DNA from: Alphaproteobacteria bacterium
GTDB lineage: Bacteria > Desulfobacterota > Binatia > UBA12015
Assembly (NCBI GenBank): GCA_017853315.1
Contig: JAFMJW010000005.1
Location: 1-52,170 of the forward strand
Direction of reading: 5' to 3'
Length of the DNA: 52,170 nt
The position numbers and the translations under genes were made by a program. The notes under the pieces were generated by a model that saw only the letters and a program-made list of their open reading frames with translations, was not told the origin of the DNA and searched no databases. This document shows positions 2,455 to 9,229 of the stretch, piece by piece. The number at the start of each line of letters is the position of its first letter. The first letter of the stretch is position 1.

Positions 2455-2483
2455 GACCTAGAGGAGGGTCGGGGGGCAGTCAA
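2455..2483 (-). promoter_or_regulatory. Putative sigma70-type promoter for cofG-cofH
   Basis: Minus strand TTGACT-17nt-TAGGTC; the -35 overlaps the stop codon of the upstream hypothetical gene. Confidence 0.5.
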
Positions 2484-3190
2484 CCGACCGCGGGCGCGGT
2501 CGCCGGATCCAACGGATCGAGGGAGGCAGGGGCGCCGACGGCCCGGGCCGGTGCAGGGCGGTTCCTCGTCGGGGGGCCGAGGGCGAGGGCGAGCTGGACG
2601 GGCGGGGTCCGAAGCTCCCGCCCGGCGAGGGTACCGGACTCCACCGGATCGGGGGCGGTCCGATCTTCGAAGTCGTCCCGGCGCCGCGGCTCCGGACGCC
2701 CCGCGTCCGGGCCCGCTGCCGGGGCGGCGGGGGCGAGCCCGGCGAGGGGAAGCCTCGCCGCGAAGGCCTGCAGGTAGAGCGTCCACTCGGAGAGGTCGCG
2801 CGTCGCGCCGTCGGAACGCTCGAGCGCGAGGTCGACCAGCGAGCGCAGCTGCCCGGGGTCGAGTCGGGGACCCGCCGCCGCGTGTCCGGGCAGGATGCGC
2901 CACCCGAGCGGCCCGTCGGGCTGCTCGCGGGCTCCCCGCGCGAGCGCGCGAAGCGCGGGGTCGGCCTCGCATCGCACCGGGATCGTCGTGGTGGCGAGCG
3001 GCTCCGACGCCGGGAGGTCGGTCGTGGCCTCGCCGCAGGGGGCCCAGCGGCGCAGGCGGCAGGACGTGTGCCGCTCGGAGAATGCCCGCTCGTCGCGTTC
3101 GAGTTCGAGCGCCAGCTCCGAGTCGCGGCGCAGGACGGAGCCGAGGACGCGAAGCGTCTCGCCGCAGTCGGTGCACTCGAGGAACGTCAT
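2480..3190 (-). CDS. Hypothetical protein with N-terminal CxxC...HxxC (possible Zn site)
   Basis: ATG at 3190, 7 nt after the upstream stop; MTFLECTDCGE...FSERHTSC; 236 aa with a Pro/Ala-rich C-terminal part. Confidence 0.6.
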   Translation of the reverse strand: MTFLECTDCGETLRVLGSVLRRDSELALELERDERAFSERHTSCRLRRWAPCGEATTDLPASEPLATTTIPVRCEADPALRALARGAREQPDGPLGWRILPGHAAAGPRLDPGQLRSLVDLALERSDGATRDLSEWTLYLQAFAARLPLAGLAPAAPAAGPDAGRPEPRRRDDFEDRTAPDPVESGTLAGRELRTPPVQLALALGPPTRNRPAPARAVGAPASLDPLDPATAPAVG

Positions 3191-3197
3191 GCCCGGA

Positions 3198-4292
3198 TCA
3201 CCCCCCGAGCCCGGCGACACGACGGCGAGCGGTCGCCGCCTCTTCCTCCGGCCGGATCGGTTTCCGGTCGCTCCACCGCACGCGCACGACCGGGCCGTGG
3301 CCGCTCGGGCGCGGGCGCTCGATCCTCGCGCCGAGCGCGGAGGCGGCGCGCTCGAGCACGTCGCCTCCGCCCCACGGGCCCGCTTCCGCGTCGGCCGGCG
3401 ACCCGATCGCCGCATCCTCGGCGCCGCGGGCCTCGAGGTCGATCGCCCACTCGTCGTGACGAAGGGCGCTCGCCCGCACCCGGATCGCGGCCCCGGGGCG
3501 GCGTGCGAGGAGTTCGAACGCGAGCACGCCCATGAGCCGCCCGAGTGCGGCCGCGTCGGCCCGGGCGACGAGTCCCGGGGGAATCTCGACGTCGACGTGG
3601 CCGCCGGTGCGGATCGCCTCGTCGCGAACGGGCGCGAGCCACGACGCGATCCATGCCGCCACGTCGAGCGGCCCCGGTCTCGGTGCGAGGCGTCCGCCCT
3701 CGCTCTCGGCGAGGAAGAGCAGGCCTTCGAGGTAGGAGAGCAGGCGGGCCGAGCAGCGCCGGATCCGGTCGAGCGCCTCGCGGTGCGAGCCGTCGAGCCG
3801 CTCCCCGGCCTCTTCGTCGAGGATCTCGCTGTAGCCGACGATGGCGTGCAGCGGGGTGCGGAACTCGTGCGAGAGGTTCCCGAGCAGGTGCCCGCGGATC
3901 TCGCTCGCGCGGCGCCGGGCCGCGCGAGCAGCGAGCGCGCCCCGGACCGAGGCCAGGACCGACGGTCCGTGAAACGGCTTCGCGATGTAGTCGCGGGCGC
4001 CCAGCCGCAGGCAATCGACCGCGGTCTCGAGGGTGCCGTGTCCCGTGACCACGAGCGCCTCCACGTCGATTCCCCCGTCGCGGATCGCGCGGAGGGCCTC
4101 GGTCCCCGAGAGGTCGCGCGGCATCGTCAGGTCGAGCAGGACGACGTCGAACGCGTCCTCGCGGAGCAGCCGCAGCGCGTCGGTGGCGCGACCCGTCGTG
4201 GTCACCCGGTACTCGGGCTTGAGCAGCATCCGCAGCGACTCCCGGGGCCCGGGCTCGTCGTCGACGACGAGGATGCTGCTCGGCTCGCGCAT
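3198..4292 (-). CDS. Hybrid REC-HisKA protein with degenerate HATPase domain
   Basis: REC: ILVVDDE, VLLDLTMP, VVTGHG, YIAKPF; H-box NLSHEFRTPLHAIVGYSEIL; the C-terminal region lacks N, G1 and G2 boxes. Confidence 0.85.
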   Translation of the reverse strand: MREPSSILVVDDEPGPRESLRMLLKPEYRVTTTGRATDALRLLREDAFDVVLLDLTMPRDLSGTEALRAIRDGGIDVEALVVTGHGTLETAVDCLRLGARDYIAKPFHGPSVLASVRGALAARAARRRASEIRGHLLGNLSHEFRTPLHAIVGYSEILDEEAGERLDGSHREALDRIRRCSARLLSYLEGLLFLAESEGGRLAPRPGPLDVAAWIASWLAPVRDEAIRTGGHVDVEIPPGLVARADAAALGRLMGVLAFELLARRPGAAIRVRASALRHDEWAIDLEARGAEDAAIGSPADAEAGPWGGGDVLERAASALGARIERPRPSGHGPVVRVRWSDRKPIRPEEEAATARRRVAGLGG

Positions 4293-4306
4293 GCGCGCGT
4301 GTGCGA

Positions 4307-4322
4307 TGCACCCGGCGTGCCA
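4307..4322 (-). promoter_or_regulatory. Sigma54 (-24/-12) promoter
   Basis: Minus strand TGGCACGCCGGGTGCA matches TGGCAC-N5-(T)TGC(A/T), GG-N10-GC, and lies just upstream of the REC-HisKA ATG at 4292. Confidence 0.8.
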
Positions 4323-4414
4323 CGACGGCCTCGCGCGGCGTCGCGCGATCGACGCCCGTCGGCCGCGGTCTTCGCCGCATCGCGAAGCCGGGGTCGCTCT
4401 CGCGTTGCTGCACG

Positions 4415-4448
4415 ACGTTCGCGAATGAACGTACGTTTCCGTGCACGG
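4415..4448. promoter_or_regulatory. Candidate upstream activator sequence for the 4307-4322 sigma54 promoter
   Basis: ACGTTC-N6-GAACGT (4415-4432) and CCGTGCACGG (4439-4448) palindromes about 120-150 nt upstream of the predicted start site, in an AT-richer patch. Confidence 0.4.
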
Positions 4449-7359: not shown

Positions 7360-7724
7360 GGCCTGCTTCCGACGGAGCCCGAGTCCGGGGCCCGCGAGAC
7401 CGCGGGATCGTTGCGACGGGCGCGGACCGCGCCGAAGGCGGCGAGGACGATGCCGGTCGCGACCAGCAGGCGACCGCCGGTCGCGACCACGTGGTAGAAG
7501 TCCTGCCGGACGCGGGCGATCTCGACGTCGGCATCGACGGCGGCTTCGCGCGCGCGCGTCCGCGCCCGGTGGATCGGCGGTTGCGAGATCCCGGTCTCGG
7601 CGATGTCGCGCAGTCGCATCGTGCCGGTCGCCCAGTTGCCGAGCCCGAGCGCGATGAGCCCGAGGCCCGCGACCAGGAGGTGGTTGCGGTACCACGCGCT
7701 GCGCGGGGGCGAGGTCTCGGGCAC
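7356..7724 (-). CDS. Small two-TM membrane protein, hypothetical
   Basis: Hydrophobic segments [16 protein letters not shown] and [15 protein letters not shown] flank a ~50 aa loop; the stop overlaps the next ATG. Confidence 0.7.
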
Positions 7725-7851
7725 GACGGCATCTCACCCATTCCGGGCCCGGGTTGCAACCCGGGGTTGCCCCGGAGGACGTCACGCTTCGCGTCGCGGG
7801 CGGTCGCGTTGCACGCACGTCTGCGCGGACGGCAACCGGACGCGCGCGCGC

Positions 7852-7867
7852 TGGCCTCCTCCTTGCT
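7852..7867 (+). promoter_or_regulatory. Sigma54 (-24/-12) promoter
   Basis: TGGCCTCCTCCTTGCT: TGGC...TTGCT with exact GG-N10-GC spacing; palindrome GGGTTGCAACCC at 7751-7762 lies ~120 nt upstream of the predicted start. Confidence 0.7.
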
Positions 7868-7877
7868 CCGGCGAGGG

Positions 7878-7980
7878 ATCGAGGGGGGCGGCGGCGCGAC
7901 GCGTGGTGCGTCGCGTTGCCGCCCGGGGGAGCGGGCGGGCCGGCTGCGAAAGCGTGTCGGTCCGCCCGACTTCGTCTTCG
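7878..7980 (+). ncRNA. Candidate sigma54-dependent small RNA or structured leader with two long hairpins
   Basis: Starts at the predicted +1 of the sigma54 promoter. 17-bp stem 7886-7924 (2 G-U pairs); 16-bp stem 7932-7968 (3 G-U pairs, 1 bulge, GAAA tetraloop); followed by ACTTCGTCTTCG. Confidence 0.5.
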
Positions 7981-8089
7981 CGCCGGCCTTCCCGAGTCTC
8001 GTTATGCGTGCCCGGGCATCGATCCCGGCCTCGCCTCGCTGCTAAGTCGTCGCTTCGGAGCGTCGACGAGGGCGCGGAGGGGGGCGGAG

Positions 8090-9229
8090 ATGGATGCGGC
8101 GACGGTCGATCGGGACGAGCGGGAGTCGGCGACTCCGTGGCCGCGCGCCGGTCTCGTCTCGAGCGGGGCCGCTCTGCGCGGGCCAGCCCCGCTCGAGAGA
8201 CGCGCGGACCGCGGGCGGGGGGTCGATGCGCTGGTCGGCGCGAGCGAGTCGATGCAAGCGCTTCGCTCCGAGGTCCGCTGCTTCGCGCGCAGCGGGGCGA
8301 GCGTTCTCGTCGAGGGCGAGACCGGGACGGGCAAGGAACTCGTCGCGCGCGCCCTCCACGAGGAGAGCGACCGCGGTGCCGGGCCATTCGTCGCCGTGAA
8401 CTGCGGCGCGCTGCCGGAGCAGTTGGTCGAGAGCGAGCTCTTCGGTCACCTCCGTGGCGCGTTCACGGGCGCCCATCGCGACCATCCCGGGCTGGTCGAG
8501 GCGGCGGCACGCGGGACGCTCTTCCTCGACGAGGTCGAGGACCTGCCCGCGCCGCTCCAGGGCAAGCTTCTGCGGCTCCTGCAGGAGGGCGAGTACCGGC
8601 CGCTCGGCGCGACGCGGCCGCGGCTCGCCGACGTCCGGGTGGTGGCGGCGTCGAACCTCTCGCTGCGCGTGCTCGTGGCCGAGCAGCGCTTCCGCAGCGA
8701 CCTCTACTTCCGGCTCGACGTGCTCCGCCTGCGGCTGCCGCCGCTCCGCGCGCGGCTGGACGACCTGCCGCTTCTCGTCGAGCATCTCCTGTCGAGCGCG
8801 GCCGACGCCGGGCGGCGCGCCGCGCCGCCGCCGCCGCCCGGTCGGGTCCTCGATGCGCTGCGTTTGCACTCGTGGCCCGGCAACGTGCGCGAGCTCGCGA
8901 ACCTCGTCGAGCGGGCGCGCGTGCTGGTCGCGAGCCGCGGGCCCGAGGCGGGTTGGGCCGACGCGCTGGCCGGCCTCCACGACTCGCTCCCGGGTCCGGG
9001 CGCGGGCGCGGCAGAGCGTCTGCCACGGCCCCCGGCCCGTTGCGAGCCAGCGTCGTCCCCGGAAGCGGAAGTCCTGCGTCGCCTGCTCGACCGTCACCGG
9101 TGGCGGCGCGACGCGGCGGCGCGCGAGATCGGCGTCTCGCGCGTCACGCTCTGGCGGCGCATGCGGAGGCTCGGGCTCGCCGGGCTCGCCGGCGAGCCGA
9201 CGGAAGCCGGCCCGGCGGCCGAGGGCTGA
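8090..9229 (+). CDS. Sigma54 enhancer-binding protein without sensory domain (AAA+-HTH)
   Basis: ATG at 8090; only ~45 aa precede [76 protein letters not shown]. Confidence 0.92.

Follow-up and report, generated by a model that had tools for sequence, protein, structure and literature searches.

How can a two-component locus carry a signal when neither of its two histidine-kinase-like proteins retains recognisable ATP-binding boxes, and is such a locus a working circuit or one in decay? The question is raised by six genes (A to F) and a candidate small RNA at the start of a 52,170-nucleotide stretch of DNA, hereafter the window (contig JAFMJW010000005.1, positions 1 to 52,170, of GenBank assembly GCA_017853315.1, deposited as Alphaproteobacteria bacterium and placed by GTDB in Bacteria; Desulfobacterota; Binatia; UBA12015). 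An earlier note on this DNA, made from the letters alone, had proposed a new sigma-54 cascade built from pseudo-enzymes plus a small RNA, in a combination that it did not recognise from any described system; the limits it gave, 2480 (the stop of E) and 9229 (the stop of F), are exact. We find that the sigma-54 locus is real and conserved, and that all of its parts have known relatives while their combination is undescribed. With a probability of roughly one half, we read it as a phosphotransfer or phosphatase module of three transcription units that is fed with phosphoryl groups from outside the locus.

Since the window is ~75% G+C, raw lists of open reading frames (ORFs) are uninformative (71 in 13 kb), and genes were called from the periodicity of third-position G+C (GC3) and then translated. 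Twenty related loci, labelled with L-numbers (L013, L016 and so on), were fetched out of 41 related genomes searched; “family” and “class” refer throughout to those of the window. B and C are neighbours in all 20 loci; D comes straight after C in 16, is 5 kb distant in one and missing from two, the contig ending at the remaining one. Gene order is thus conserved, as the earlier note had wished to see checked, and its coupled unit of a protein with two transmembrane segments, an AAA+/HisKA fusion and an NtrC-type regulator (A, B and C) is confirmed by GC3 framing, Pfam and alignments.

B joins the remains of two enzymes. Pfam recognises AAA_lid_14 (E = 5.5e-8), HisKA (9.6e-7) and, at 23.5 bits and hence below the 25-bit cut-off, Sigma54_activ_2 (6.9e-5); across an alignment of 21 sequences reaching down to 24% identity, these families are found in 20, 21 and 17 rows, respectively. 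HATPase_c was found neither in the window copy nor in any of the 21 relatives or of 10 sampled members of the wider family. The phospho-acceptor H259 is invariant in 21/21 rows together with N263 and P264, in an H-box that was ancestrally HE[LF]KNP[LM] and reads HRIKNPL (within ELAHRIKNPL) in the window, whereas the N-box Asn, DxGxG (G1) and GxGxG (G2) occur in no row. The AAA+ half has been stripped as well: GAFTGA is present in 0/21 rows, the segment from Walker A to Walker B is shortened, and no row keeps the Walker B DE (which now reads, for example, DG, EG or ES) or the sensor II Arg, the lid reading WPGD.AEL or W.GNL.EL with no Arg. Walker A (GxxGxGK) is retained in only some relatives outside the family (GEAGTGKS is one example) and is gone from the family rows, the window having LDCCGPAF in its place. 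The AlphaFold model (pLDDT, the predicted local distance difference test, 84.8) comprises an AAA+-like domain at residues 1–212, mostly above 85, a disordered linker, a two-helix dimerisation and histidine phosphotransfer (DHp) domain and an alpha/beta domain resembling the catalytic and ATP-binding (CA) domain of kinases. B therefore has the AAA+ fold and lid of a bacterial enhancer-binding protein (bEBP) and the H-box of HisKA, and lacks both the ATPase and sigma-54-contact motifs and HATPase_c, which bears out the description of B as a dead fusion protein.

Loss of the ATP boxes is not peculiar to this genome. A B-like profile searched against 1.84 billion cluster representatives gave 10,567 proteins at E ≤ 1e-30, and a good number of these will be ordinary kinases or bEBPs matched on one domain; among the best 150 (all at E ≤ 1.2e-64), ~111 match in one stretch from profile position ≤34 to ≥449, as read from the table of matches. 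Roughly half of these end-to-end matches are 560–690 residues long, with ~100–180 extra N-terminal residues, and in the 10 members sampled (nine long and one short) a recognisable receiver was found in three of the nine long ones (E 1e-3 to 2e-9). Loci of this type in records titled Syntrophobacteraceae, Verrucomicrobiia, Thermodesulfobacteriota and Eisenbacteria have this H-box without the ATP boxes, and judged by such titles the family spans several phyla. Two clusters in a protein atlas have the B architecture and neither has a real name, the names seen being generic (“histidine kinase”, “hypothetical”); one representative, P0148 (1040 residues), is fused to a family-9 glycosyltransferase. 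By its motifs, then, B is an old and widespread pseudo-enzyme, an NtrC-type receiver-AAA module whose ATPase is dead and whose helix-turn-helix (HTH) has been replaced by a DHp and a dead CA domain, and the family of the window has additionally lost the N-terminal extension and Walker A. Because the loss is ancient and family-wide, B is not a decaying copy. What the locus exposes is a large, unstudied protein family in which a dead bEBP-like AAA+ domain is joined to a DHp and an equally dead catalytic domain, frequently with a receiver-like domain in front.

VpsR and NtrX are known bEBPs without GAFTGA. The nearest folds to the B model in Foldseek are the AAA+ domains of VpsR, FlrC, NtrX and NtrC1 (E 6e-12 to 1e-10), and B has likewise lost the sigma-54 contact loop. 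It differs from these atypical activators in also lacking Walker A (within the family), the Walker B DE, the sensor II Arg and the HTH, and in its fusion to a DHp/CA-like module; our literature search found no paper on the B architecture and no described bEBP relative with that fusion. A different comparison is offered by DivL, which has lost the phospho-acceptor histidine and kept its CA domain. B and D are the converse, keeping the histidine and losing the ATP boxes. The available parts of two papers on histidine pseudokinases such as DivL (PMC4211667, 10.1101/812529) describe a kinase scaffold kept for signalling without autokinase activity.

The second protein, D, has a clearer history. 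Our alignment holds 18 orthologues, of which nine are family rows, seven are full-length rows from other families and two are truncated to the receiver. HisKA is found in 16 of the 18 with the motif SHE[FL]RTPL (SHEFRTPL in the window), and D54 and K105 of the receiver are invariant. The N, G1 and G2 boxes are absent from D in the window and HATPase_c from all nine family rows, whereas 7/18 orthologues carry HATPase_c (best E 1.2e-24); by alignment these are the seven full-length rows outside the family, and they have a normal N box (..N[AS]..[FH][ST]), DxGxG and G.G.G. In the AlphaFold2 model of D (pLDDT 83.6) the receiver, a long DHp and the CA-like fold are all kept, with a short lid region (295–304) below pLDDT 50. 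Receiver-controlled histidine kinases, with LvrB of Leptospira as their prototype, have an N-terminal receiver and a HisKA kinase core, according to the available part of PMC13269768. The out-of-family D orthologues, with receiver, HisKA and intact HATPase_c, share this layout, and an LvrB chain also stands at rank 8 among the fold matches of the B model; D in the family of the window differs in having lost all three boxes. Judged by these motifs, D descends from an LvrB-type receiver-controlled kinase whose ATP site was lost in this family.

The kinase-less state is therefore derived. At three class-level loci a canonical HAMP- or GAF-HisKA-HATPase_c kinase lies immediately upstream of B, and in the genome of the window no canonical HATPase_c is found on the contig itself (C191), with ~15 matches elsewhere. 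By these comparisons the locus is an ordinary module with a kinase that has been remodelled at the level of the family, rather than a system built from pseudo-enzymes as the earlier note had it. Its statements that neither HisKA protein has intact ATP boxes and that the locus has no working autokinase hold for B and D in the window, but not for the ancestral state, and intact kinase boxes in relatives, which it had named as evidence against its proposal, do exist for D. The value of the locus lies partly here: orthologous loci within one class form a before-and-after series from an intact receiver-controlled kinase to a protein without ATP boxes, in which the conversion of a kinase into a phosphotransferase or pseudokinase can readily be followed. 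The same family's module also gains a small RNA, a second bEBP (F) and a zinc-motif protein (E); among the loci and genomes compared, E, F and the RNA were found within this family only.

Rates of change separate the parts of these proteins. The ratio of nonsynonymous to synonymous substitution rates (dN/dS) was read only for the window against the locus of the same genus, as beyond it synonymous sites are saturated and constrained by GC3. For B it is 0.09 in the DHp, 0.30 in the pseudo-AAA domain, 0.53 in the CA-like domain and 0.79 in the linker; for D it is 0.20 in the receiver, 0.18 in the DHp and 0.42 in the CA-like domain; and for C it is 0.08–0.17 over all domains. Within B, constraint is strongest on the DHp (89% identity within the genus). 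In sum, the phosphotransfer parts appear tightly constrained and the dead domains relaxed but not free, and with H259, N263 and P264 of B, D54 and K105 of D and D64 and K114 of C all invariant, it is the phosphotransfer residues that have been kept and the ATP boxes that have not. We find it hardly credible that the degenerate domains are leftovers of evolution, with B and D being lost from a locus that works through C and F only. B stands beside C in every fetched locus across the class, ~111 of the best 150 representatives of its family match end to end at E below 1e-64, the DHp and receiver domains are under clear purifying selection, and GC3 periodicity is intact across B and D. Decay would fit better with the absence of D from genus g3 and from one class-level locus, with the CA-like domain of D, where nonsynonymous differences per site (pN) come close to synonymous ones (pS) between genera, and with the chance persistence of long open frames in DNA of 75% G+C.

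The same domains bear on whether B or D, or both, are still ATP-dependent autokinases with non-canonical pockets, in which case the locus would be an ordinary two-component pair. In the models both CA-like regions come out as folded alpha/beta domains, and they stay in frame across nine family loci, and Myxococcus Nla6S is reportedly an active kinase with an atypical catalytic domain. We nevertheless regard this as unlikely, for none of the N-box Asn, DxGxG and GxGxG is present, HATPase_c is found in 0/21 B relatives and 0/9 family D proteins when out-of-family D reaches 1.2e-24, the lid of D is short and of low confidence in the model, and the CA-like domains evolve 2–5 times faster than the DHp.

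The two -24/-12 promoters of the locus owe their significance to conserved position and not to the match itself, for a pattern scan of the window gave 24 matches at ≤2 mismatches against 26.0 ± 5.3 in shuffled sequence, so that the motif alone is not above chance. Upstream of D, TGG[CT]A[CT]-N5-N[TC]GC is present in 18/18 readable loci, the window included, at 13–54 nt from the called start; within the family the distance is 15–19 nt, and in the window the GC of the -12 element lies 15 nt from the ATG of D, whose mRNA should therefore be nearly leaderless. Both promoters had been predicted in the earlier note, which proposed looking for their boxes in relatives; the second, that of the small RNA, is conserved in 14/14 genomes (see below). 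The genome encodes rpoN. Elsewhere in it, other non-coding -24/-12-like boxes (C9:22533, C369:1306 and C143:3169) lie 9–36 nt upstream of long ORFs of high GC3, the C9 site being directly downstream of a kinase-bEBP gene pair; the genome-wide list is noisy and served only to note recurring short leaders, and very short leaders may be usual on sigma-54 transcripts in this organism.

Between C and D, just past the stop codon of C and 100–200 nt upstream of D, a palindrome of the form G[TC][TAG]C[AG]-N4-[CT]G[ATC][AG]C is found in 14/18 loci, with GTTCATTCGCGAAC, GTACGAAAATGTAC and GTTCGAATTTGAAC as variants. What the class shares as a core is thus B and C, an enhancer close to C and a sigma-54 promoter for D. 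Among 135 loose promoter-like sites in the whole assembly, the strict palindrome occurs 40–260 nt upstream of only one, the D promoter. Upstream of the RNA promoter, a C-type palindrome was found in 0/9 loci under the strict pattern and 2/9 under a loose one, the two being G+C-rich matches at 35–44 nt from the promoter, unlike the distance at D. Its presence at one promoter and lack of a convincing counterpart at the other suggest two different activators. We propose that phosphorylated C would bind the palindrome just downstream of its own gene and fire the promoter of the D-E mRNA; with no other site in the genome pairing the palindrome with a -24/-12 box, the switching on of D by C would form a closed loop. 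The A-B-C unit itself would be read from a sigma-70-type promoter to give the small membrane protein A, B and the activator C. A scan for sigma-70 promoters returned no promoter-like site.

What D might do once made is suggested by Spo0B of the Bacillus sporulation phosphorelay and ChpT of the Caulobacter CtrA relay, in which a DHp hairpin with a phospho-histidine is joined to a kinase-fold domain unable to bind ATP, and phosphate is shuttled between receivers. At the level of motifs and models B and D appear to share this architecture; they differ in that no sequence relationship was detected, and in that B has an N-terminal pseudo-AAA+ domain and D a receiver of its own. By this analogy D, in the family of the window, would most likely be a receiver-to-histidine phosphotransferase or a phosphatase that feeds back on C or, in the genera where F keeps a receiver, passes phosphate to F. 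Because the module has two histidines and three or four receivers (counting C, and F in most genera) and no ATP site, phosphoryl groups would have to enter from outside, from an orphan kinase or a small-molecule donor, in a layout that resembles the lower half of a phosphorelay (Spo0F-Spo0B-Spo0A) or a phosphatase sink.

B, whose AAA+ domain seems to be of NtrC-like descent and would no longer hydrolyse ATP or touch sigma-54, most likely restrains C through its conserved histidine, by phosphatase action or transfer, and perhaps through AAA-to-AAA contacts. The complex check proposed in the earlier note, of the pseudo-AAA domain with a bEBP, was run for B and C: the AAA+ domain of C (145–405) with the pseudo-AAA domain of B (1–212) scored 0.43 against 0.00 for the best of three controls, a pass mark that 58/80 solved complexes and 2/110 mismatched pairs also reach, in a range (≤0.60) that holds only 7 of those 80 and both passing mismatches and in which, by the calibration of the method, predictions fail more often than they succeed unless the pairing was already probable on other grounds. 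At least 83% of contacts are shared between runs, with partner pLDDT of at least 83. We take this as weak support for an AAA-AAA contact, and resemblance to bEBP rings of known structure may explain the pass.

Such contacts would also suit a simpler role. HrpR and HrpS form a hetero-oligomeric bEBP, and PspF is a bEBP antagonised by PspA. B might similarly be a purely protein-protein anti-activator, a dead bEBP subunit that caps or poisons rings of C (or F) and is tethered or released by A in the manner of PspA and PspF, with its histidine uninvolved. The bEBP AAA+ fold with its conserved lid WPGD.AEL and PxL motifs, the translational coupling of A and B and the weak B-C prediction (0.43 vs 0.00) are all compatible with this, and in the genus of the window F, being sensor-less, would need a negative partner. 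We give the idea slim odds, as the DHp is the very part of B under strongest constraint (0.09) and its invariant His, Asn and Pro (21/21) are hard to square with dimerisation alone.

The third unit of our phosphotransfer or phosphatase module is the RNA, which the earlier note had seen as a double hairpin made from its own sigma-54 promoter, and which proves to be a conserved, structured element with covariation. The region 7876–7985 folds into two long hairpins (-84.4 kcal/mol, z = -7.0; 0/200 shuffles as good), in the order unpaired 5' CGAGGGGG, hairpin 1, unpaired linker, long hairpin 2 and U-poor tail; the conserved unpaired segments are the 5' GAGGGGG, the loop of hairpin 1 (NRUGGKG) and the linker GGGGGA. 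The same element was seen in eight related loci, and a covariance model built from nine sequences found exactly one match per genome in 14/20 family genomes, five of them not used in building, always between A and F. Three of the six misses are all the genomes of genus g3 (97–98% complete), in which the intergenic region is different; one is a contig ending 1.7 kb into the locus, and in the last two genomes, 88% and 90% complete, not even the B locus was found. Outside the family the model matched 0/132 genomes, in a class sample of 151 whose stricter filters also lost one family match. Folded one at a time, all 14 sequences give this pair of hairpins. With the structure extended to 34 pairs, pairing is seen in 81.4% of cells and in no more than 52.6% once partners are slid; 21/34 pairs have changes on both sides and 0/500 shuffles reach any of five measures. 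The alignment was fitted to a subset of the tested pairs, a bias towards the structure, and within it the lower part of hairpin 2 has slipped out of register (54.8% paired). Rfam, searched over 2300–9400 on both strands, gave no match at E ≤ 1, Pxr and Qrr included, and we regard the RNA as a candidate new family. A small peptide within it was considered and rejected, since the AUG in the loop is GUG or GCG in some genomes and no start is conserved.

TGG-N9-TTGC begins 25–27 nt upstream of the conserved 5' CGAGGGGG in 14/14 genomes. The 12–14 nt between the -12 box and CGAGGGGG are not conserved, and the sequence is conserved from the predicted start on, as expected if transcription begins there. 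An unlikely alternative is that the element is the 5' leader of the F mRNA, with hairpin 2 as an attenuator that decides F synthesis. It lies on the strand of F, 117 nt upstream of the ATG. A terminator scan found one site, in an inner 5-bp stem of hairpin 2 only, and given the U-poor tail that follows, termination may be inefficient. Conserved sequence nevertheless runs exactly from the predicted start to hairpin 2, as for a discrete RNA, while the spacer from there to F is highly variable, with little conservation; genus g3 has F but no RNA (0/3 genomes, 97–98% complete); and a TG-N-TA extended -10-like element stands ~40–50 nt upstream of F in 9/9 RNA-bearing family loci (by eye, with no statistics), which suggests that F has its own promoter. 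A separate small RNA is accordingly the reading that the sequences favour. Overlap of the RNA as an antisense with the A-B-C mRNA was also considered and is unlikely, as -35/-10-like elements, again found by eye, lie between the start of A and the RNA promoter.

GlmY is a small RNA that depends on sigma-54. Others have been described beside or together with bEBPs, namely Pxr, encoded next to its activator gene nla19 (available part of PMC5568312), and the Qrr RNAs with LuxO (available part of 10.1101/2021.07.01.450815). The window element resembles all three in being a ~100-nt multi-hairpin RNA with a -24/-12 promoter beside a bEBP gene, and differs from Pxr and Qrr in having no Rfam match, in its G-rich unpaired segments (GAGGGGG and GGGGGA) and in its restriction to one Binatia family, and from such systems in that no Hfq or CsrA is detectable in its genome. 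By analogy with nla19-pxr, its promoter would most likely be activated by the adjacent F; we assign it to F because of this adjacency and of the missing C-type palindrome. A literature search found no paper on sigma-54 or small RNAs in Binatia. The phylum has, to our knowledge, no cultured members, and in it the RNA stands out as a new candidate with a clean sigma-54 promoter, in a genome with neither helper detectable.

Several points count against the circuit as we have drawn it. Which activator serves which promoter and which way phosphate would flow are inferred, the assignments of C to the D promoter and of F to the RNA promoter resting on adjacency and on the presence or absence of a motif. 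In a search of the DHp-CA half of B against PDB sequences at E ≤ 0.01 neither Spo0B nor ChpT was matched, the only hit being KinB (3d36, E 3.8e-7), so that the comparison with them is one of architecture only. The CA-like domain of D has only 21–34% identity between genera, with pN close to pS, and may be a drifting structural remnant rather than a functional phosphotransferase domain. As to what the RNA might act on, the genome has 36 complements of its 5' seed, only two of them near starts, where permuted motifs average 45, and no target was found; Hfq (PF17209) and CsrA (PF02599) were not detected in this 95%-complete genome, so that any action of the RNA in trans would dispense with both of these known helpers.

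A bolder extension is speculative, and we would not expect it to hold in full. B-type proteins might be a widespread, unrecognised class of NtrC-derived decoy subunits with two docking sites on a partner bEBP, the dead AAA+ domain meeting its ring and the histidine of the DHp its receiver, and might so couple its oligomeric to its phosphorylation state; the Binatia family would then do without any dedicated ATP-dependent kinase, taking phosphate from metabolic donors or cross-talk, and its output would be a family-specific sigma-54 RNA of a new type.

Table 1. Genes, promoters and other elements of the locus, numbered from the first nucleotide of the window.
Feature	Position	Strand	Description
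A	7356-7724	-	122 aa; two hydrophobic 19-mers at residues 16-34 and 79-97
B	5908-7359	-	483 aa; pseudo-AAA+, disordered linker, HisKA/DHp, CA-like domain
C	4512-5930	-	472 aa; NtrC-type response regulator: receiver, Sigma54_activat, lid and HTH_8 (Pfam)
D	3198-4292	-	364 aa; Response_reg and HisKA only (Pfam), CA-like domain
E	2480-3187	-	235 aa; CxxC...HxxC protein
F	8090-9229	+	379 aa; Sigma54_activat, lid and HTH_8 (Pfam); sensor-less bEBP
Sigma-54 promoter of D-E, TGGCACGCCGGGTGC	4308-4322	-	pattern scan and conserved position
Putative enhancer (upstream activating sequence)	4405-4447	-	14-bp palindrome GTTCATTCGCGAAC (4417-4430) within a larger inverted repeat
Sigma-54 promoter of the small RNA, TGGCCTCCTCCTTGC	7852-7866	+	pattern scan and conserved position
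Two-hairpin RNA, ~95 nt	7879-7973	+	folding, covariance model, covariation
Extended -10-like element, TGCTAAGT	8040-8047	+	by eye; ~45 nt upstream of the ATG of F

The genes are tightly packed (Table 1). The TGA of A and the ATG of B overlap as ATGA, the end of B overlaps the start of C by 23 nt, a gap of 219 nt separates C from D, and E starts a few nucleotides past the stop of D. Neither A nor E belongs to a family in Pfam or NCBIfam. Homologues of A occur in 13/20 fetched loci, with GLGNW.TG and DFYHVV.SGGR conserved; E is present in 7/20, all within the family, and its C5, C8, H40 and C43 are invariant in 8/8 sequences. C is 53–84% identical across 20 relatives, with D21, D22, D64, K114 and the Walker A and GAFTGA columns invariant. 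F likewise has GAFTGA, and its ~45 N-terminal residues are unassigned by Pfam. The earlier note called F sensor-less, which is right for the window but describes a derived state, since orthologues in other genera carry a receiver: Response_reg is found in L016 at 5.9e-18, and L017–L020 align to the receiver residues of C. No receiver was found in F of the window, of its sister-genus locus, or of L014, L025 and L027, and Pfam gives none in L013, L014 and L027.

Downstream of E lie cofG and cofH (FO synthase, for coenzyme F420; NCBIfam), and lipB is downstream of F. The cofH-cofG pair (2-2391 on the minus strand of the window) is found downstream of the module in 15/20 fetched loci across the class. 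Upstream of cofG, near 2440–2475, there is a TTGAC[TA]-N17-TA-type element and no -24/-12 box. We considered cofG-cofH as a sigma-54 output and rejected it, the loci with C directly before cofG (L027 and L030) having, like the window, the former element and not the latter.

Two further observations concern the rest of the window. At 33032–35143 (+) a 703-residue ORF has strong coding periodicity (GC3 0.94) and no Pfam family at E ≤ 1e-4. At 38089–43064 (+), separate from the locus described here, the gene of a 1111-residue protein, which combines adenylate/guanylate cyclase, AAA_16 (STAND-like) and TPR domains, shares 4 nt with that of a 547-residue GAF-Sigma54_activat-HTH_8 activator, and the pair may form a pathway from a cyclic nucleotide through GAF to sigma-54.

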